A program made the translations under genes and the position numbers. A stretch of DNA of 14,410 bases from Candidatus Auribacterota bacterium (GTDB taxonomy: Bacteria; Auribacterota; UBA6266). This document shows positions 3,126-12,186 of the stretch, piece by piece. The notes under the pieces were generated by a model. That model worked only from the letters and a program-made list of their open reading frames with translations, did no database searches and was not told the DNA's origin. Position 1 is the first letter of the stretch; each line of letters starts with the position of its first letter. Location: the NCBI GenBank assembly GCA_023136205.1, contig JAGLRQ010000003.1, positions 1 through 14,410 of the forward strand, given 5' to 3'.

Positions 3126-3368
3126 TCACTCTCTTTTTTTTCCTTCACTTTTATTTATAGAACTACAGCGAGGGCAGCGTGAAAAGTCCTCTTCGGAATC
3201 ATAAATATATACATACGCACAAATCGGGCACCTGCAGGTTTTTTTTTGTTCAGGATTTACCCTCTTCACCTTGACCTTATACTCAAAAAAAATCCAGGCA
3301 AAGAGCACCACTCCCAGGGAAAGGCACAGATACACAACAAAAGCAGTGGAAATATCAACTTTTATCAT
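3126..3368 (-). CDS. small (80 aa) membrane-anchored zinc-ribbon protein, function unknown
   Basis: ATG at 3368-3366 overlaps the stop of the upstream TonB_C gene by 14 nt (AAATGATAAAAGTTGA). One N-terminal hydrophobic helix (ISTAFVVYLCLSLGVVLFAWIFFEY) is followed by a K/R-rich stretch and by CRCPIC-x15-CPRC, two Cys knuckles typical of a zinc ribbon or rubredoxin-like fold. The stop is 12 nt before the dnaE ATG. No family recognised by eye. Confidence 0.6.
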   Translation of the reverse strand: MIKVDISTAFVVYLCLSLGVVLFAWIFFEYKVKVKRVNPEQKKTCRCPICAYVYIYDSEEDFSRCPRCSSINKSEGKKRE

Positions 3369-4143
3369 TTTTTATTTCTTCCACATTAGAATCCGGAATT
3401 GCCGGATGCGCATTAATGGTCCCCCAGTCAAGAGAATCAGTGCCGGTATCTTCAGAAAATATCCATTCGGAAACCGCATCCGCCCACAATTGATCAATTT
3501 TTTTTCTGCCGCAAGATTTCTCAATTATTACATATCTCACTTTACCTAACGGTGTAACCCAGAATTTCAGCGTAAGCCTGTTCAAATCTGAATAGTCCTT
3601 AAAATCCTCCGGCAACTGTGGAAAATGCATTTTCACGGCATCTCTCACGGATACAGGGCCCGCAACAAGTGATTTTTTCCTTTCAAATATATCCAGTAAG
3701 CCCCCACCCCATTTTCCTTCAATCATAGATGGAGCGAAGACATCTTTCGATTCTAATTCTAACTTTATGTTAAACTCCGGTTTCGATAAGACTCCAGCTA
3801 AAGTTATCGGAGATTCCTGTCTGCGGCTGCGCAAACTTGCGGGCTCCTGATCCCATACAACCACCTGGTGATCAAATTTAATTTCAGAATCCAGCACTTT
3901 TCTTGAAAATCCAGCCCGGCCCGGCATAGAAAAAAGGCTATAGTCGCTTTCGCTTAAAATATCAGTAATCTCAGGTTTATCAAGCCTCAGAGGAACTGAA
4001 ACAAGAAAAACTTCCACGGGTAATCTTTTCGCGAGGAAAAAGGGGTCGCTTTTCACACCCACCAGCAAGAAACCTGCCAAGTGCCATACAACAGACAATA
4101 AAAATGCCTGAAAAAATATTTTGTCTTTCAAAACACCATTCAT
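3355..4143 (-). CDS. TonB/TolA-like energy-transducer candidate: N-terminal TM anchor plus C-terminal TonB_C-like domain
   Basis: ATG at 4143. N-terminal helix is FFQAFLLSVVWHLAGFLLVGV. The C-terminal segment FPQLPEDF...LTLKFWVTPLGKVRYVIIEKSCGRKKIDQLWADAVSEWIF fits the TonB C-terminal pattern (YP..A...G.V.v.F.V...G.V....v..SSG...LD.AA..AV..W.F). It lies 16 nt downstream of exbD, the canonical exbB-exbD-tonB order. The central region is not Pro/Glu/Lys-rich, unlike classical TonB. No obvious SD. Confidence 0.65.
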   Translation of the reverse strand: MNGVLKDKIFFQAFLLSVVWHLAGFLLVGVKSDPFFLAKRLPVEVFLVSVPLRLDKPEITDILSESDYSLFSMPGRAGFSRKVLDSEIKFDHQVVVWDQEPASLRSRRQESPITLAGVLSKPEFNIKLELESKDVFAPSMIEGKWGGGLLDIFERKKSLVAGPVSVRDAVKMHFPQLPEDFKDYSDLNRLTLKFWVTPLGKVRYVIIEKSCGRKKIDQLWADAVSEWIFSEDTGTDSLDWGTINAHPAIPDSNVEEIKNDKS

Positions 4144-4159
4144 CGGAAAGGGATAAAGG

Positions 4160-4570
4160 TTATTCTCTCTTCTTAGGTTTCGTAGCTATGGCTAATCTGT
4201 TTATACCGGCAGATTTTATTTCACCCATCACTTTTACAACAAGCCCATGATTAACCCTGTCGTCAGCTTTAATAATAACTATCTTATCGGGGGTTCTCTT
4301 TGCTATAGGCCTGAGCTTAATTCCAAGGGCTTCTTCAGTTATATTTTCATCATTTAGGAGAATCTTCCTTTCCGAAGTAATTGTTACAATAATATTATCC
4401 TCAGACTGCGCTTCGCTCACTTTCGATTCAGGAAGATTCACTTTTATCCCCGGCTGAAGTATAAATGAAGATGACAGCATAAAAAACAGCAACAGCAGGA
4501 AAATCACATCTATAAGAGGAGTAATATCTAATTTCCCTTTTTCAAGCGAGGTCTTTTTTCTAAACTTCAT
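4160..4570 (-). CDS. exbD: ExbD/TolR family biopolymer transport protein (136 aa)
   Basis: The track ORF runs to 4648, but I place the start at the ATG at 4570-4568 (MKFRKKTSLEKGKLDITPLIDVIFLLLLFFMLSS...). This gives the typical short cytoplasmic N-terminus, the D-x-TPLIDV-x-F-LL-FF TM signature of ExbD/TolR and a periplasmic domain. This ATG overlaps the exbB stop by 11 nt (GAATATGAAGTTTAG), suggesting translational coupling. Confidence 0.9.
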   Translation of the reverse strand: MKFRKKTSLEKGKLDITPLIDVIFLLLLFFMLSSSFILQPGIKVNLPESKVSEAQSEDNIIVTITSERKILLNDENITEEALGIKLRPIAKRTPDKIVIIKADDRVNHGLVVKVMGEIKSAGINRLAIATKPKKRE

Positions 4571-5192
4571 ATTCTTCTCCTCTAGCAGCAAGAATATTGA
4601 CAAGTTCCGTAGCGCTCTTTTCCATATCAAGAACCAGAGAATCAACACGGCTTACAAGATAGTTATAAGCCACATAAGCCGGTATAGCAACTGTTAACCC
4701 CGCGGCGGTTGTCACCAGAGCTTCCCATATACCTCCCGCAAGGTCAGCCGGATTTACAATGCCCGCCTTCGCGCTTATATCCTGAATTCGCATAAAAGCC
4801 TTGATCATGCCCGTTACCGTCCCAAGAAGCCCCAGAAGAGGTGTTACATGAGCAATGGTCGCGAGTACTACCAGGTTTTTTTCGAAACGCGGAACTTCAT
4901 GCAATCCCGCATCTTCTATTGATTCTTTTATTTCTTCTTTTTGATCATCATGTTTCAGGAGCCCTGCTTTGACTATATGTGCCACAGGGCCAGGTGTTTC
5001 ATCACAAATCGAGATAGCTTCCGTTATTTTTCCCTTCTTTATTATATTTCTAATGCCCGCCATGAATTTCTCGGTATCAATCTGGGCACGGTGGAAATGA
5101 AACAACCGTTCAATGAAAATAGTAAGAGCAAGGACTGAACAAAACCCAATAAGATACATTAACGGCCCGCCTTTTACTACAATTTCTAACAT
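4560..5192 (-). CDS. exbB: MotA/TolQ/ExbB family proton-channel protein (210 aa)
   Basis: ATG at 5192, preceded by a strong SD (AAAAGGAGGATTAT-ATG). It has three predicted TM helices. The family signature is present: PLLGLLGTVTGMIKAF...LAGGIWEALVTTAAGLTVAIPAYVAYNYL. Confidence 0.92.
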   Translation of the reverse strand: MLEIVVKGGPLMYLIGFCSVLALTIFIERLFHFHRAQIDTEKFMAGIRNIIKKGKITEAISICDETPGPVAHIVKAGLLKHDDQKEEIKESIEDAGLHEVPRFEKNLVVLATIAHVTPLLGLLGTVTGMIKAFMRIQDISAKAGIVNPADLAGGIWEALVTTAAGLTVAIPAYVAYNYLVSRVDSLVLDMEKSATELVNILAARGEEYEV

Positions 5193-5214
5193 ATAATCCT
5201 CCTTTTATTATATC

Positions 5215-5242
5215 GTATTGAGTATTGAGTATCGCGTATTGC
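5215..5242. repeat. four tandem heptamers GTATTGA GTATTGA GTATCGC GTATTGC (plus strand), in the TPR-exbB intergenic region
   Basis: Read directly from the sequence. Copies lie at 5215-5221, 5222-5228, 5229-5235 and 5236-5242. On the transcribed strand they read GCAATAC GCGATAC TCAATAC TCAATAC, ending about 12 nt before the exbB SD. Confidence 0.85.
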
Positions 5243-5270
5243 GTTAAGAATTCTATTTAATACGCAATAC
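5236..5270 (-). repeat. inverted repeat / RNA hairpin: 9-bp arms (GTATTGCGT / ACGCAATAC) with a 17-nt loop containing the palindrome AGAATTCT
   Basis: Arms at 5236-5244 and 5262-5270 are perfectly complementary. The right arm extends to ACGCAATACTC, which can alternatively pair with GAGTAT of a neighbouring heptamer. It sits 17 nt after the TPR stop codon, but no U-tract follows on the minus strand, so it is not a canonical intrinsic terminator. Confidence 0.7.
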
Positions 5271-5286
5271 TCACTACTGATTTTTC

Positions 5287-7755
5287 CTACCAGATAAAAC
5301 TTCCCTTCCTCCTCAATTCGCTTATCCTTTTTGCGGCATCTTCGCTTAACGGATTGTTTACATCAATCAGTTTCTGATAAATTTTTATAGCTTCTTTAAA
5401 TTTGCCCATCCCTTCATATAATTCAGCAGCTTTATAATCTGCCTTCGAAAACCAGTGTTTAACCTGAGAATAACCATATATTACCATAAGATAGCGATCC
5501 AGAGCTTTATCAATATCACCAAGTTTTTCAAAACATCTTCCTATTTTATAATATGCCTGGGCTTTTAATTCAGGGTTGTCGCTGCTAAGAATTTCTTCGT
5601 ACACCTCGACTGCCTCCTGATATTTTTCCATAGTGAAAAGTGAATCTGCAATTCTTCCTTTTGTTTCGAAAACAAGGTAGTTATTCTTTTGCTCCGAAAG
5701 TGCGGTAAAAGTTTCAAGCGCTTCACCAAATCTGGCTTGAGCCGCAAAGCAATCACCTAAAAGAAAGGCGCCATCAAATCTAAAATCGCCGTCGGGGTAC
5801 CTGGCTAAAAGTTCCTTCAAAATTGCTTCGGCATCATTAATGTCCTCATTTCTAAAAGCACTTTTCGCCGCCCAAAACATTGCCTCATCGGCCAGCTCGG
5901 AAGAAGGGAAGACTTCATATAATTTCGTGTATATTCCCCTCGCGGACTTAAATTCTTCATTATTATACCTCTTCTCACCAAGCCAAAACATGACTTCCGC
6001 TGTAATAGGTGAATGAGGGTACTTTACGACATATTCTTCAAAAGATTTACTTGCTTCTTCCATTTTCCCCATCTGGCTGTAACACCAGGCACGTTCATAT
6101 TCCGCGCGCGGAACCAGAGGACTACCAGGAAACTGTTCTATCATTTCCGAATAATATTTAAGAGACCGCTGATAATCTCCCATCGCATAATATGTGGCGC
6201 CTATCCGAAAGGTCGCCATATCCTTAAGGTCAGATCCGGCAAAAGAGTTTAAAAGCTTAAAATATGCTCCAATAGCTTTTTCGAAATTTCCCGCATTGAA
6301 ATTAGCCATACCAATTCTATATTGCGCATTATCTGAAAACGGGCTTTCAGGATATTGAGTTATAAGAGTCTCAAAAGCTCCCATTGCTTTCGAAAAACCT
6401 TCCAGTTTATAATAACACCACCCTATTTGAAAAAGAGCCTGGTCGGCTTTCCCGCTCCGCGGATATTCACTAAGAATCATTTTATAACTTTTTACAGCCC
6501 CTTCGTAATCACCCAGAAAATAATAGGCATCGCCTATTTTTAACTGTGTTCCCGCTTTAAAACCAGGATCGTTACTGCTTTCTCTCGCCCTTTTGAAATT
6601 ATCAACTGCCTTAATATATTTACTCTGCCTGAAATATGCCCATCCAAGCCCATTATAAAATTTGGGTAATTTTACACTGCTATGAAATCTATTCAACAGC
6701 TCCTTGAAAAACGCTTCGCCTTTTTCATATTCTCCGAGCTCCAGATAGGATTCCGCAAGCCAATACGTCGCATCCTCAATACTAAAATCCTCCGGATAAT
6801 CTTTAATAAATGTTTCCAGTTTCTCAACAGCTGTTTTATAATCCGCCAGAATAAAACTGCCTTCCCCTATGCGCAAATAAGCAGCCTTCGCGTAAGAGCT
6901 GGATGGATAGTCTGTTATAAGAAGCTGGAACTTTTCTACCGCCTTATTATACTCCTTAAGTTCCCAGTAAGACCACCCAATAAGATACAGACAGGTATGA
7001 GCCCATTCTTCATTTTTCCCTTTCTCAAGAGCTTTCTCCAAATTATCAATTGCCTTGGAATATTTATTTTCTGCAAGGTTAACTTTCCCAAGCCACAACA
7101 TGGACTCCATGGCTTCATAAGAATCCGGTGATTTTTCAACAACCTTCCTAAAATTATCCTCCGCAATATCGTAATGCTTAAGACCATACTCCATAGATCC
7201 AATACTGAGACAGGTTTTCGCGAAAAGTTTACTCTCAGGAAATTTTTTCACAAGTTCATTAAAAATCTCTATTCCCTTCTCATCCTCATTTTTATGGCGG
7301 TAACACCATCCCAGAGAATAATACGCGTACTCCATATAAAAACCTTTATCGTACTCTACAATAAGTTTCCGATACGCTGAAATAGCTTCATCGTATCTTT
7401 TCTTTTTAAGATACGATTCCCCAATCCAGTACAGCATTGAATCCCTGAAGGATCTATCACGATACTTGATATATCTGTTTAAAAGATTAATCGCCTGATC
7501 GTAATTTTCACTATAATAGTGGCATTCTCCAAGAAGCGCTATCGCTTCCCTGCGATTTTCCGCGGTGGGATAGGTAGAAATATATCTTTGTAATTGGATA
7601 GCGGCAGTATCATACAATTCATCGGCATATGCTCCCTTTGCCACATCCAAAAGCTCTTTAGCCTCTTTGCCTTCATACGCAGAACAAAGCGTCGTAAAGA
7701 AAAGAAGAATGATTATACATACATAAGTTCTTAAACTACAACGGGATAAAAGCAC
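5287..7755 (-). CDS. large secreted tetratricopeptide-repeat protein (~820 aa), tandem CpoB(YbgF)/BamD-type TPR units
   Basis: The ORF is open from 7821 (TTG), with other in-frame starts at ATG 7812 and GTG 7755. I favour GTG 7755. It lies 4 nt after the ymdB stop, has GAAAGG upstream, and yields a clean signal peptide (M)LLSRCSLRTYVCIIILLFFTTLCSA|YEG. The body has more than 12 repeats of the ~37-aa pattern A...F..L...YP.S....A.y.iG.cyy..g.y..A (for example ITDYPSSSYAKAAYLRIG, LSEYPRSGKADQALFQIGWCY, ITQYPESPFSDNAQYRIGMAN, IEQFPGSPLVPRAEYERAWCY, VVKYPHSPITAEVMFWLGE). The start coordinate is uncertain (7755, 7812 or 7821). Confidence 0.9.
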   Translation of the reverse strand: MLLSRCSLRTYVCIIILLFFTTLCSAYEGKEAKELLDVAKGAYADELYDTAAIQLQRYISTYPTAENRREAIALLGECHYYSENYDQAINLLNRYIKYRDRSFRDSMLYWIGESYLKKKRYDEAISAYRKLIVEYDKGFYMEYAYYSLGWCYRHKNEDEKGIEIFNELVKKFPESKLFAKTCLSIGSMEYGLKHYDIAEDNFRKVVEKSPDSYEAMESMLWLGKVNLAENKYSKAIDNLEKALEKGKNEEWAHTCLYLIGWSYWELKEYNKAVEKFQLLITDYPSSSYAKAAYLRIGEGSFILADYKTAVEKLETFIKDYPEDFSIEDATYWLAESYLELGEYEKGEAFFKELLNRFHSSVKLPKFYNGLGWAYFRQSKYIKAVDNFKRARESSNDPGFKAGTQLKIGDAYYFLGDYEGAVKSYKMILSEYPRSGKADQALFQIGWCYYKLEGFSKAMGAFETLITQYPESPFSDNAQYRIGMANFNAGNFEKAIGAYFKLLNSFAGSDLKDMATFRIGATYYAMGDYQRSLKYYSEMIEQFPGSPLVPRAEYERAWCYSQMGKMEEASKSFEEYVVKYPHSPITAEVMFWLGEKRYNNEEFKSARGIYTKLYEVFPSSELADEAMFWAAKSAFRNEDINDAEAILKELLARYPDGDFRFDGAFLLGDCFAAQARFGEALETFTALSEQKNNYLVFETKGRIADSLFTMEKYQEAVEVYEEILSSDNPELKAQAYYKIGRCFEKLGDIDKALDRYLMVIYGYSQVKHWFSKADYKAAELYEGMGKFKEAIKIYQKLIDVNNPLSEDAAKRISELRRKGSFIW

Positions 7756-7759
7756 AACA

Positions 7760-8539
7760 TCACACCTTTCTTTGAATCCTTTTAACAGATAAAGTTTTCC
7801 CCGTTTTTTCATCAATTTCAAAAAGCGCCCCGCAAACTTTTAAATCATTTTCCGCTACGTCAAATCTGGCGGGTATTTGTGTAATAAATCTTTTTAAAAC
7901 CGGTTCCACTTCTCTCCCGAGAACAGATTTATAGGGCCCGGTCATACCAATATCCGTTATAAAACCAGTGCCATTCGGAAGTATTGTTTCGTCGGCTGTC
8001 TGTATATGTGTATGCGTTCCAAAAATGCATGAAACTTTTCCGTCAAGATACCAACCAAGAGCTATTTTCTCCGATGTAGCCTCCGCATGCATATCTATTA
8101 TTATTATTGGTGTTTGCTGTGATAATTTGCTTACTAACTCGCCCGATGTTTTAAAAGGACATTCCACCGCATTCATAAAAACCCTGCCAACCAGGTTTAT
8201 AACAGCTATTTTTAACCCGTTTTTAAGTTCAAAAATACTATATCCTTTACCCGGCGCGGAATCAGGATAATTCGCAGGCCTTAACAGCCTCGGCTCTTCA
8301 TCTATAATCTTAAAAACCGCCTGGTTTTTCCAGACATGGTCTCCACTTGTAATAACATCTGCTCCCGATTCAAGAAGAAAAGAAACCACTTTAGGTGTAA
8401 ACCCGCTTCCTGCCGCAGAATTTTCTCCATTGACAATACAAAAATCAACGGAATACTCCTCTTTTAACACGGGAAACAGCTTGGCAAAGGCCTGTCTCCC
8501 CGGCCTTCCTACTATGTCACCGATTACCAGTACATTCAA
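7760..8539 (-). CDS. ymdB: YmdB-family metallophosphoesterase (2',3'-cyclic-nucleotide phosphodiesterase-like), 259 aa
   Basis: TTG start at 8539, preceded by AAGGGAG. The N-terminus MNVLVIGDIVGRPGR...VNGENSAAGSGFT...GDHVW...DMHAEATSEK...GTHTHIQTAD matches the calcineurin-like YmdB (TIGR00282-type) motif series. It lies directly downstream of rny, as in Bacillus subtilis rny-ymdB. Confidence 0.9.
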   Translation of the reverse strand: MNVLVIGDIVGRPGRQAFAKLFPVLKEEYSVDFCIVNGENSAAGSGFTPKVVSFLLESGADVITSGDHVWKNQAVFKIIDEEPRLLRPANYPDSAPGKGYSIFELKNGLKIAVINLVGRVFMNAVECPFKTSGELVSKLSQQTPIIIIDMHAEATSEKIALGWYLDGKVSCIFGTHTHIQTADETILPNGTGFITDIGMTGPYKSVLGREVEPVLKRFITQIPARFDVAENDLKVCGALFEIDEKTGKTLSVKRIQRKV

Positions 8540-10285: not shown

Positions 10286-10894
10286 CTACCTGCTCTTTTT
10301 TTGCTGCAGACTTCTTCCTTGTTTTTTTACATAAATTATTCTCTTCTCGGTGACAACAACATCTACAGGCTCATCATGCTTTCTTCCGGATACATCTTCC
10401 ACAACCTGAAAATCAAATGCAACTCCGATTCTTTTTGTCTTCTTTCCTGTCTTTTTTAAAAACTTATCGTAATAACCTTTTCCCCTTCCTATCCTGTTGC
10501 CTTTCGTGTCAAAAACAACTCCCGGAAGAATGACAAGATCAAGATCCTCTACGGAACAATCTCTGTGCATATTCTGTTTCGGCTCCATTATGCCATAAGA
10601 CGATTTCTCAAGATCTCCTAAAGAATTAACCCTCCCTATAGTAAATAATTCTTCTTTTTTCTTGCACCTTGGAAGATATACAATTTTTCCTTTAGAACAG
10701 GCATTCTGGATTATCTGCCTTGTATCCACTTCGTCATCCAATCCATAAAACAAAAGTACCCTCTTTGCCGAGAGAAAAAACTCATTATCTTCAAGCTTCC
10801 TGGCCACCAACGTAGAAACTTTCTCTCTATCTAACGGTAATTTTGTTTTAAGACTGGAAATCCAGTTCCTCAGTCTTTTGATTCTCTTCTCCAA
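10286..10894 (-). CDS. 5-formyltetrahydrofolate cyclo-ligase (MTHFS/YgfA family), 202 aa
   Basis: Family pattern seen: ...AKRVLLFYGLDDEVDTRQII...GKIVYLPR...YGIMEP...DLVILPGVVFDTKGNRIGRGKGYYDKFL. The only start that keeps the conserved N-terminal helix is TTG at 10894, which overlaps the rarA 3' end by 25 nt. The start is moderately uncertain. Confidence 0.85.
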   Translation of the reverse strand: MEKRIKRLRNWISSLKTKLPLDREKVSTLVARKLEDNEFFLSAKRVLLFYGLDDEVDTRQIIQNACSKGKIVYLPRCKKKEELFTIGRVNSLGDLEKSSYGIMEPKQNMHRDCSVEDLDLVILPGVVFDTKGNRIGRGKGYYDKFLKKTGKKTKRIGVAFDFQVVEDVSGRKHDEPVDVVVTEKRIIYVKKQGRSLQQKKSR

Positions 10895-12186
10895 ATTTTT
10901 AACCGCTCAGCAATTTGTTTCTCTTCTCCGTTATCCGAAGGATGGTAATACCTCTTATCCTTCGGCAAATATTTCTGTTTTACATAATTGCCGGGAAAAT
11001 CATGAGGATACTTATAATCCACTCCTCTCCCGATTGTCTTCGCGGATTTATAGGTTGAATCCTTAATGTGCATGGGAACTTCCATTACTTCCCCTTTTTC
11101 AATATCGGCCCACGCCGCAGATATCGCTTTATACGATGCGTTACTCTTGGGAGCAACCGCAATATATACGGCAGCCTGCGAAAGAATTATCTTCGCTTCG
11201 GGCATGCCTACAAAATTTACAGCATCAGCAGCTGCCTGAGCGACCACAAGAGCCATGGGATCAGCGTTGCCAACATCCTCACTCGCACAAATAACCATTC
11301 TCCGGACAATAAACATAGGGTCTTCTCCCGCGTATAACATCTTTGCAAGCCAGTAAACCGACGCGTCGGGATCACATCCCCTCATACTCTTAATAAATGC
11401 CGAGGCAGTATCATAATGACCATCCCCTGTTGAGTCATAAACTACCTGTTTTTTTTGAACTGAATCCTCAATAACCTCACGGGTTATCTTTACCACACCG
11501 TTTTTCGGCTCGGTGGTCAAGACAGCCATCTCAAGAGCATTAAGGGCTTTTCTCGCATCACCACCACTTACCTGTGAAATAAATTCAATATTACCAGGTA
11601 CTATTTCAACTCTCATTTTTCCAAAGCCCCTCTCCTTGTCTTCCAGGGCTTTTCTTATAATCTTTTTAATTTCCTCTTTCTCAAGTTTTTTCAGTTCAAA
11701 TATCAAAGACCTTGAAAGCAAGGGCGGAATAACCGAAAAGAACGGATTCATAACTGTTGCCCCCACTATAGAAATCACACCCCGTTCAACATCAGGCAGC
11801 AACGCATCCTGCTGGGCTTTATTAAACCTGTGTATCTCATCTATAAAAAGAACCGTCTTTTTCCCTTCGTCAGAAAGACGATTCTTGGCTTCTGTCACAA
11901 TTTTTCTTATATCTTTTACATTCGCGGTTACCGCATTCAGATAGTAAAAATGCCTTTTTGTCGTATTGGCAATAACAATACCTAGAGCGGTTTTACCACA
12001 ACCGGGAGGGCCAAAGAAAATAATGGAGGTAAAATTGTCAGACTTAATGGCACGCCATAATAGCTTACCCTTTGCGATTACATGCTCCTGTCCAACAATC
12101 TCTTCAAGAATGCCAGGCCTCAATCTATCTGCAAGCGGCCTTGCTTTATCTATCCTATTTTTGCTTTCAGTATCAAATAATTCCAT
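10870..12186 (-). CDS. rarA: replication-associated recombination protein A (RarA/MgsA, AAA+ ATPase), 438 aa
   Basis: ATG at 12186. Elements seen: PLADRLRPGILEEIVGQEH; Walker A GPPGCGKT; Walker B LFIDEIHRFNK; a MgsA C-terminal domain (HYDTASAFIKSMRGCDPDASVYWLAKML..GEDP.FIVRR); and YKYPHDF near the C-terminus. Confidence 0.93.
   Translation of the reverse strand: MELFDTESKNRIDKARPLADRLRPGILEEIVGQEHVIAKGKLLWRAIKSDNFTSIIFFGPPGCGKTALGIVIANTTKRHFYYLNAVTANVKDIRKIVTEAKNRLSDEGKKTVLFIDEIHRFNKAQQDALLPDVERGVISIVGATVMNPFFSVIPPLLSRSLIFELKKLEKEEIKKIIRKALEDKERGFGKMRVEIVPGNIEFISQVSGGDARKALNALEMAVLTTEPKNGVVKITREVIEDSVQKKQVVYDSTGDGHYDTASAFIKSMRGCDPDASVYWLAKMLYAGEDPMFIVRRMVICASEDVGNADPMALVVAQAAADAVNFVGMPEAKIILSQAAVYIAVAPKSNASYKAISAAWADIEKGEVMEVPMHIKDSTYKSAKTIGRGVDYKYPHDFPGNYVKQKYLPKDKRYYHPSDNGEEKQIAERLKIWRRESKD

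Follow-up and report, generated by a model that had tools for sequence, protein, structure and literature searches.

The stretch of DNA analysed here (the window) comprises positions 1 to 14,410 of contig JAGLRQ010000003.1 from a Candidatus Auribacterota bacterium (assembly GCA_023136205.1). Five consecutive genes on its minus strand encode a giant tetratricopeptide repeat (TPR) protein, the ExbB and ExbD subunits of a proton motor, a TonB-like transducer and a small membrane protein with a predicted zinc ribbon (Table 1). The initial annotation, made from the letters of the window alone, had read these genes as a self-contained energy-transduction unit of the cell envelope, and we verified all five tightly packed open reading frames (ORFs) at the positions it gave, together with the two overlaps and the gap between them. 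The same cassette is conserved in gene order across two bacterial phyla, its non-motor genes are present together and lost together, and its motor is a paralogue of the TolQR motor found in its own phylum. The cassette represents a paralogous branch of the Ton/Tol motor family, a variant that had not been described before.

Table 1. Coordinates of the cassette genes and of the RNA element between them (positions in the window)
Feature	Position	Strand	Remarks
Giant TPR protein	5287..7755	-	822 aa in public gene calls; longest ORF extends to 7821 (844 aa)
RNA stem-loop in the TPR-exbB spacer	5221..5278	-	-24.2 kcal/mol; z = -3.65 against shuffled sequences
ExbB/TolQ-family proton-channel subunit	4560..5192	-	210 aa; Pfam MotA_ExbB
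ExbD/TolR-family subunit	4160..4570	-	136 aa; Pfam ExbD; 11-nt overlap with exbB
TonB-family transducer	3355..4143	-	262 aa; 16-nt gap after exbD; transmembrane helix and divergent TonB_C domain
Membrane zinc-ribbon protein, bitopic (predicted)	3126..3368	-	80 aa; 14-nt overlap with the TonB-like gene

Searches with hidden Markov models agreed with the family identities first proposed for the motor subunits and for the TPR protein. ExbB matched Pfam MotA_ExbB (PF01618) at E = 5.7e-34 (117 bits, cut-off 22.9) and carries the motifs GTVTGM and LVTTAAG (starting at residues 124 and 159, respectively), while ExbD matched PF02472 at E = 2e-31 and has its membrane aspartate (D21) within a PLIDV motif. 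Among the NCBIfam models, ExbB scored best with TolQ (TIGR02796, 112.7 bits, under the cut-off of 221) and reached 74.8 bits with the ExbB equivalog (TIGR02797, cut-off 206.2); ExbD reached 84.3 bits with TolR (TIGR02801, cut-off 127.3). Both subunits score nearer to the TolQ and TolR models than to those of ExbB and ExbD, and all of the equivalog cut-offs are missed. In this family the ExbB5-ExbD2 motor turns proton flow into movement, and 5:2 proton motors (MotAB, ExbBD, TolQR, AglRQS, GldLM, ZorAB) have been recruited repeatedly to new outputs.

The strongest evidence that the five genes belong together comes from other genomes. A scan with ExbB of one genome per GTDB species matched at least 599 stretches, at least 573 of which encode relatives, and we examined the best 80, which come mostly from Candidatus Omnitrophota (57-67% ExbB identity) and otherwise from Auribacterota; identity among the cassette ExbB orthologues spans the same 57-67% across the two phyla. 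In nearly all of these 80 loci the order is TPR gene (~820 aa), exbB, exbD, an ORF of ~700 nt and the zinc-ribbon ORF, and the complete order is found in L016, in L018 and in almost every locus from L019 to L098. With loci from metagenomes included, 160 related loci were examined, and the counts that follow refer to those with enough flanking sequence. In GTDB genomes, the TPR gene is the immediate upstream neighbour of exbB in 65 of 71 loci, the TonB-like gene is present in 60 of 64 and the zinc-ribbon gene in 59 of 64 (60 of 65 in an earlier count under a different length criterion). Contigs from Joint Genome Institute (JGI) metagenomes, which serve as an independent replicate, gave 45 of 52, 43 of 46 and 43 of 46, respectively. 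The cassette is found in ~100 of the 110 sufficiently long loci of Omnitrophota and Auribacterota, which excludes chance ORFs. Four more distant relatives of the transducer (P0029, P0009, P0036 and P0021), detected by the exhaustive profile search, are encoded in this cassette as well, and a zinc-ribbon ORF of ~79 aa comes next to each of them downstream. The at least 573 relatives in GTDB, and the roughly equal number on contigs from metagenomes, are to be read as uncharacterised ExbB relatives and not as confirmed cassettes. Comparison of gene neighbourhoods, which the initial annotation had proposed as a check, shows that the five-gene set co-occurs in both phyla with the small ORF included.

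The surroundings of the cassette are not conserved in this way. Upstream lies uvrA in 54 loci, mostly of Omnitrophota; Auribacterota have ymdB and dnaE at its two ends, and the genes downstream are assorted housekeeping genes. Since the flanks differ between the phyla, it is the five genes and not their setting that form the conserved unit. The setting described at the outset, between rny-ymdB and dnaE and in line with zapA, is correct for the window and does not extend beyond its lineage, given that Omnitrophota carry uvrA upstream.

A second line of evidence is the joint absence of the TPR, transducer and zinc-ribbon genes from seven loci that keep exbB and exbD (64-71% identity), four of them in GTDB genomes (L037, L041, L062 from Candidatus Erginobacter occultus, and L079) and three in metagenomes (L147, L155, L177). 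These loci retain the flanks that their relatives have around the full cassette, either uvrA and dnaE, or an IMPDH-like gene, guaA and dnaE, and their G+C content is higher where measured (56-58% in L147, L155 and L177). That they are missing jointly speaks for a joint action of the three non-motor genes. Single absences are few: the zinc-ribbon gene is missing from L023, whereas in L003, L004 and L012, assemblies of the same population, most of the TPR gene only seems to be missing, an artefact of 100-N scaffold gaps.

The transducer consists of one transmembrane helix with an S-x3-H motif, a strand resembling the motor box, a linker and a C-terminal domain of TonB_C type, and it belongs to one family throughout the cassettes. 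In the window, the helix has the spacing S17-x3-H21-x6-V28-x3-S32, which is that of the SHLS motif of TonB; among 51 orthologues H21 is invariant and S17 at least 90% conserved. About 20 residues past the helix follows the strand VEVFLVSV (residues 43-50), represented in Omnitrophota by VsFLGpiLEKTAFDIMLE, at the position of the 'motor box', which is reported to occur in 93% of the validated TolA proteins and in every TonB (PMC12204202). The linker has 8 prolines in 116 residues and its conserved motifs are not proline-based, in agreement with the earlier observation that a Pro-rich rod is lacking.

The C-terminal domain was also first assigned from the window alone, and as a single sequence its match is weak: the Pfam scan of the window proteins found no match for the transducer or for the zinc-ribbon protein, and TIGR01352 gave 19.8 bits over residues 189-230 (cut-off 27.1). 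Family profiles, on the other hand, support the assignment. A profile of the four closest sequences searched against 1.84 billion representatives returned one close family member and 157 proteins matched through residues 150-244, with the match at their own C-termini and with TonB_C proteins reached down to E = 1.2e-12; nine of ten matches that were scanned contain Pfam TonB_C, six of them above its cut-off. A profile of 51 sequences matched solved TonB C-terminal domains at E = 1.3e-7, compared with E = 0.3 for TolA. From these profile and Pfam results, the transducer is a rodless protein of the TonB family whose head is of TonB type, and that of the window carries a divergent TonB_C domain at approximately residues 150-244.

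The fifth gene had been described as encoding an 80-aa protein with a transmembrane segment and four cysteines, and this is what we find: a short N-terminus, one hydrophobic helix at about residues 6-30, a K/R-rich stretch (EYKVKVKR) and a C-terminal four-cysteine module with a CxxC...CPxC motif. The alignment has the invariant residues W25, C47, C50, Y54, S63, C65, P66 and C68 and the consensus MIKxDiStAiFlYL...W.FFe.k..l..F..ee..iWqCsIC.YtYvDSkh.eiS.CPRCgSYNkk. Its two putatively metal-binding knuckles, C47-x2-C50 and C65-P-x-C68, stand ~15 residues apart, as in rubredoxin-like domains. Pfam RUBY_RBDX (PF21349) was matched by 27 of 30 members, weakly and consistently (best E 2.7e-6); neither Pfam nor NCBIfam has a specific family for the protein, the matches being to generic zinc ribbons, and a profile search of the PDB gave generic rubredoxin and zinc-ribbon matches at E >= 0.005. 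An AlphaFold2 (AF2) model of moderate confidence (predicted local distance difference test, pLDDT, 65) has a helix at residues 6-37 and, at low confidence, a beta hairpin at 43-56; when it was compared with the PDB by Foldseek, no match fell below E = 0.3 (that to the zinc finger of ZitP, at E = 6.2, is not significant). From the positive-inside rule, given the K/R cluster that follows the helix, we predict a cytoplasmic location for the zinc ribbon. In one locus (L108, ~10800-11100) the zinc-ribbon ORF, found by hmmsearch at 1.4e-16, is uncalled in the public annotation. For the transducer and the zinc-ribbon protein, the novel pair of the cassette, word-indexed homologue searches returned just 4 and 3 clusters, and their conservation is visible through gene neighbourhoods alone.

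The TPR protein matched Pfam TPR_6 at E = 1.7e-92 in 11 stretches and YfiO at 1.1e-34. With NCBIfam TIGR02795 (tol_pal_ybgF, the CpoB/YbgF type of TPR) it scored 298 bits against a cut-off of 90.1, a value that is the sum over repeats in nine separate stretches, and it reached 210 bits with BamD. It scored 128 with the model of Escherichia coli CpoB itself (NF008068, cut-off 383), and its layout is not that of CpoB, a protein of ~260 aa that combines a coiled coil with one TPR domain and whose gene stands last in tol-pal: as first noticed, the TPR protein is about three times that size and is encoded first, upstream of exbB, with no tol-pal genes around it. A hydrophobic segment lies at the N-terminus of the window protein, and the leaders of its orthologues are of signal-peptidase-I type with no conserved lipobox cysteine, from which we judge the protein to be secreted and probably soluble in the periplasm. 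A lipoprotein, the inferred ancestral state of CpoB (PMC12204202), was considered and ruled out for lack of that cysteine, as was a conserved C-terminal docking motif, since the C-termini differ between phyla. At L093 (4981-9984), uvrA and the TPR gene form a single ORF of 1667 aa, perhaps through fusion of the genes, perhaps through an error of sequencing.

Taking these parts together, we lean, if only slightly, towards the interpretation that the five genes encode a single, operon-encoded envelope machine of the Ton/Tol family, separate from both classical systems and paralogous to them, with the TPR protein as its partner. ExbB and ExbD would form the usual proton-driven 5:2 motor of the inner membrane. 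Conserved motifs suggest that the transducer docks on this motor through its S-x3-H helix and motor-box strand, and the motor would then pull or rotate the transducer, which would reach into the periplasm. There its linker and TonB-type head may work with the secreted 820-aa CpoB-type TPR array, a periplasmic scaffold or client that would couple the work of the motor to an envelope target encoded elsewhere. In Tol-Pal, the TPR domain of CpoB binds TolA; from this precedent, from gene adjacency and from the joint losses, we infer that the TPR array engages the linker or head of the transducer. The 80-aa protein would be a fourth membrane subunit, its helix packed against the bundle of motor and transducer and its cytoplasmic zinc ribbon serving as a regulatory or localisation handle. 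Such control or positioning from the cytoplasm is suggested by analogy with GltJ, a TonB-like protein of Myxococcus whose cytoplasmic zinc ribbon regulates how stable the Agl-Glt complex is (PMC11135422).

Several observations weigh against this interpretation. About 20% of the cassettes encode a shorter transducer of 123-187 aa that keeps the helix and the motor-box strand and has no TonB_C domain, too little space being left ahead of the zinc-ribbon gene for an ORF that could supply one; these cassettes of Omnitrophota (L031, L034, L043, L052, L053, L066, L068, L074, L063, L077, L081, L088, L089 and L093), still hold the TPR and zinc-ribbon genes. Two further loci, L029 and L120, have no adjacent TPR gene, so neither the TPR protein nor the TonB_C domain is universally required. 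The survival of exbB-exbD without the other three genes suggests that the motor may serve other transducers or partners, and because TPR_6-type repeats are generic, the resemblance to CpoB may say little about what the TPR protein binds. An AF2 model of the transducer, built from an alignment of four sequences, was unusable (pLDDT 33.5). Finally, a cassette and a Tol-Pal cluster were not found in one genome: a metagenome scan with the transducer profile returned nothing, and one with ExbB returned no contig from the sample to which L099, the Tol-Pal locus described below, belongs.

The rival that survives best is that the cassette is an ordinary Ton system, which energises TonB-dependent transporters encoded elsewhere and has acquired the TPR and zinc-ribbon proteins as lineage accessories, comparable to TtpD of Vibrio; we consider this unlikely, though it deserves to be taken seriously. 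The cassette shares with TonB-ExbB-ExbD a motor with the ExbD membrane aspartate and a single-pass S-x3-H transducer with a motor-box strand and a head of TonB and not TolA type, and the presence of a separate Tol-Pal cluster in the phylum (see below) leaves a Ton role free. A TPR accessory is even essential to the Vibrio TonB2 system (TtpB-TtpC-ExbB2-ExbD2-TonB2-TtpD; PMC6957404), and this system likewise contains an ExbB-ExbD-TonB module. The cassette differs from TonB2 in having no TtpC or TtpB homologues, in the upstream position and much larger size of its TPR protein and in its zinc-ribbon subunit. From Ton systems generally it is set apart by the better scores with TolQ and TolR models, by a linker with conserved motifs in place of the Pro-rich rod, by a head that, taken as a single sequence, scores under the curated thresholds and that is missing from those ~20% of cassettes that keep the TPR and zinc-ribbon genes, and by these two proteins themselves. 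As to the transporters, none was identified among the clustered and scanned flank ORFs of the GTDB loci, a scan in which no transporter model was run. The statement of the initial annotation that TolB, Pal, OmpA-like and receptor genes are missing holds for the window and for 10 kb on each side of it on the source contig. In addition, 176 complete genomes of Omnitrophota were described as lacking a canonical TonB-dependent receptor/sus architecture, in a 2026 preprint whose statement refers to giant-protein loci and is not a full census (10.64898/2026.06.07.730766).

The cassette could also supply TolQ, TolR, TolA and CpoB as one half of a Tol-Pal system that is split, with tolB and pal elsewhere, and that acts in constriction of the outer membrane. 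The best NCBIfam matches of the motor are indeed TolQ and TolR, the CpoB model is matched nine times, the TPR protein is encoded with a transducer of the TolA/TonB family, the cassette of the window shares its gene string with zapA, and split tol-pal operons are known from other phyla (PMC12204202 supplement). The same supplement lists for Auribacter fodinae a 'tol-pal operon' with split TolA and 'No pal or TolB Nearby'. A search with this TolA returned only the protein itself, through its N-terminal part and on contigs of up to 516 kb, and contrary to the supplement the longer contigs show tolB and pal directly downstream of it. The locus (L099, 8913-13303; also L100) reads tolQ, tolR, the N-terminal part of tolA, a C-terminal domain of TolA assigned to Pfam TonB_2, tolB (TolB_N and PD40), pal (OmpA) and a LysM gene. 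Its TolQ scored 183.6 bits with NCBIfam (under the cut-off of 221), well above the cassette ExbB, its TolB 325.9 bits and its Pal 132.8 bits, the Pal score being over its cut-off. From this gene order and these scores, Auribacterota hold a canonical and complete tolQRAB-pal cluster.

The existence of this cluster decides largely against a split Tol-Pal. Cassette ExbB is only 31% identical to the Auribacterota TolQ and cassette ExbD 31% to its TolR, as opposed to the 57-67% seen among cassette orthologues, which makes the cassette an old paralogue and not the motor of a split operon; the alternative that the initial annotation itself had raised, namely the tolQRA part of an otherwise canonical system, falls with this result. 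Homologues of the Auribacterota TolB, Pal and TolA C-terminal domain were found in none of the 160 cassette neighbourhoods. The minimal Tol-Pal set has been defined as motor, transducer, TolB and Pal (PMC12204202), and the cassette has neither orthologues of TolQ and TolR, nor a C-terminal domain of TolA type, nor TolB and Pal with its motor. It differs from the canonical order tolQ-tolR-tolA-tolB-pal-cpoB also in that its TPR protein comes first, with ~9 CpoB-type units and no lipobox, and the context of zapA and rny is not kept in Omnitrophota. We therefore regard a split Tol-Pal as improbable, and the role in outer-membrane constriction or tethering that had been suggested for the module is weakened, since a canonical Tol-Pal exists in the phylum.

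Very improbable, in our view, is an inner-membrane platform for surface motility, adhesion or predation like Myxococcus Agl-Glt (AglRQS, GltG/GltJ, GltC/D/E), for although the types of parts correspond one for one (TolQR-type motor, TonB_C transducers, periplasmic TPR proteins and, in GltJ, the regulatory cytoplasmic zinc ribbon on the transducer side; PMC11135422) and Omnitrophota have been described as host-dependent or episymbiotic (10.64898/2026.06.07.730766), the likeness is one of parts only: the NCBIfam models GltC and GltE gave 28.8 against a cut-off of 450 and 27.3 against 225, outer-membrane Glt components and genes like MglA/B and AglZ were not recognised in the flanks, the zinc ribbon forms the C-terminus of a protein of its own instead of the N-terminus of the transducer, and neither sequence nor fold searches linked it significantly to those of ZitP or GltJ.

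The nearest published arrangement to the separate machine that we favour is a cluster of the Planctomycetes-Verrucomicrobia-Chlamydiae (PVC) superphylum, to which Auribacterota also belong, consisting of a TPR gene, one gene resembling tolQ, two resembling tolR and a gene for a transducer with a vWA head, and left uncharacterised by its describers (Williams-Jones et al. 2025, PMC12204202). In both, an uncharacterised TPR gene is found upstream of the genes for the TolQR-like motor and for the transducer, the latter having a helix of SHLS type and a motor box. The cassette differs in encoding one ExbD instead of two, a TonB_C in place of a vWA domain and the additional zinc-ribbon membrane protein; the word 'zinc' has no occurrence in the text and supplements of that study. 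The initial annotation had raised the alternative of an already named TonB subtype; our literature search found no paper that names or mentions the arrangement of the cassette.

In the window, the cassette forms part of a string on the minus strand that reads pheT, zapA, rarA, a gene for 5-formyltetrahydrofolate cyclo-ligase, rny, ymdB, the TPR gene, exbB, exbD, the tonB-like gene, the zinc-ribbon ORF and dnaE. The TPR gene as called publicly starts 5 nt past the ymdB stop, and dnaE starts 6 nt downstream of the zinc-ribbon ORF. A terminator scan found no terminator-like sites between the cassette genes, which favours a single operon, and the stem-loop at 5221-5278 is not among the sites it reported. 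This structure occupies part of the 94-nt spacer between the TPR stop and the exbB start, with ~15 paired bases and no U tract after it, and as judged from its predicted folding it may be an element of RNA processing or stability that sets the ratio of TPR protein to motor. Identical proteins are encoded on a 291-kb ENA scaffold and in a metagenome-assembled genome (MAG) at NCBI (GCA_030639325.1); its closest relatives, MAGs that bear the label Candidatus Aureabacteria (the present Auribacterota, PVC group), have the whole string from pheT to dnaE in common. The entire 14-kb window is one co-directional string of genes with negative GC skew throughout, and it includes a 25-nt overlap (10870-10894) of the rarA/mgsA-like gene with that for the cyclo-ligase.

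A bolder form of the interpretation of a separate envelope machine is that the cassette represents a third class of TonB/TolA-type machine, specific to Omnitrophota, Auribacterota and related unclassified lineages and independent of both TonB-dependent transporters and Tol-Pal, in which ExbBD would move a giant CpoB-like scaffold through a rodless transducer while the membrane zinc-ribbon subunit gates or positions the complex from the cytoplasm. We put this forward as possible, if rather doubtful. Were it true, the machine could for instance coordinate the growth of wall and outer membrane, or cell-cell contact, in very small cells.

Two elements of the cassette are new to the field: a strongly conserved, earlier unannotated small subunit with a predicted cytoplasmic zinc ribbon, and a CpoB-type TPR array that occurs outside Tol-Pal. 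The former also corrects a gap in the databases, where its ORF has no family model and is sometimes uncalled. The variants that lack the TonB C-terminal domain offer a natural test of which parts of the transducer are dispensable. Together with the wide distribution of the cassette, the new subunit should interest those working on Ton and Tol, as newly defined partner sets of 5:2 motors have each revealed new envelope biology. Omnitrophota and Auribacterota have, to our knowledge, no easily cultured members, and in these bacteria of small genomes and possibly host-dependent life the cassette is a concrete candidate for energising a process of the envelope.

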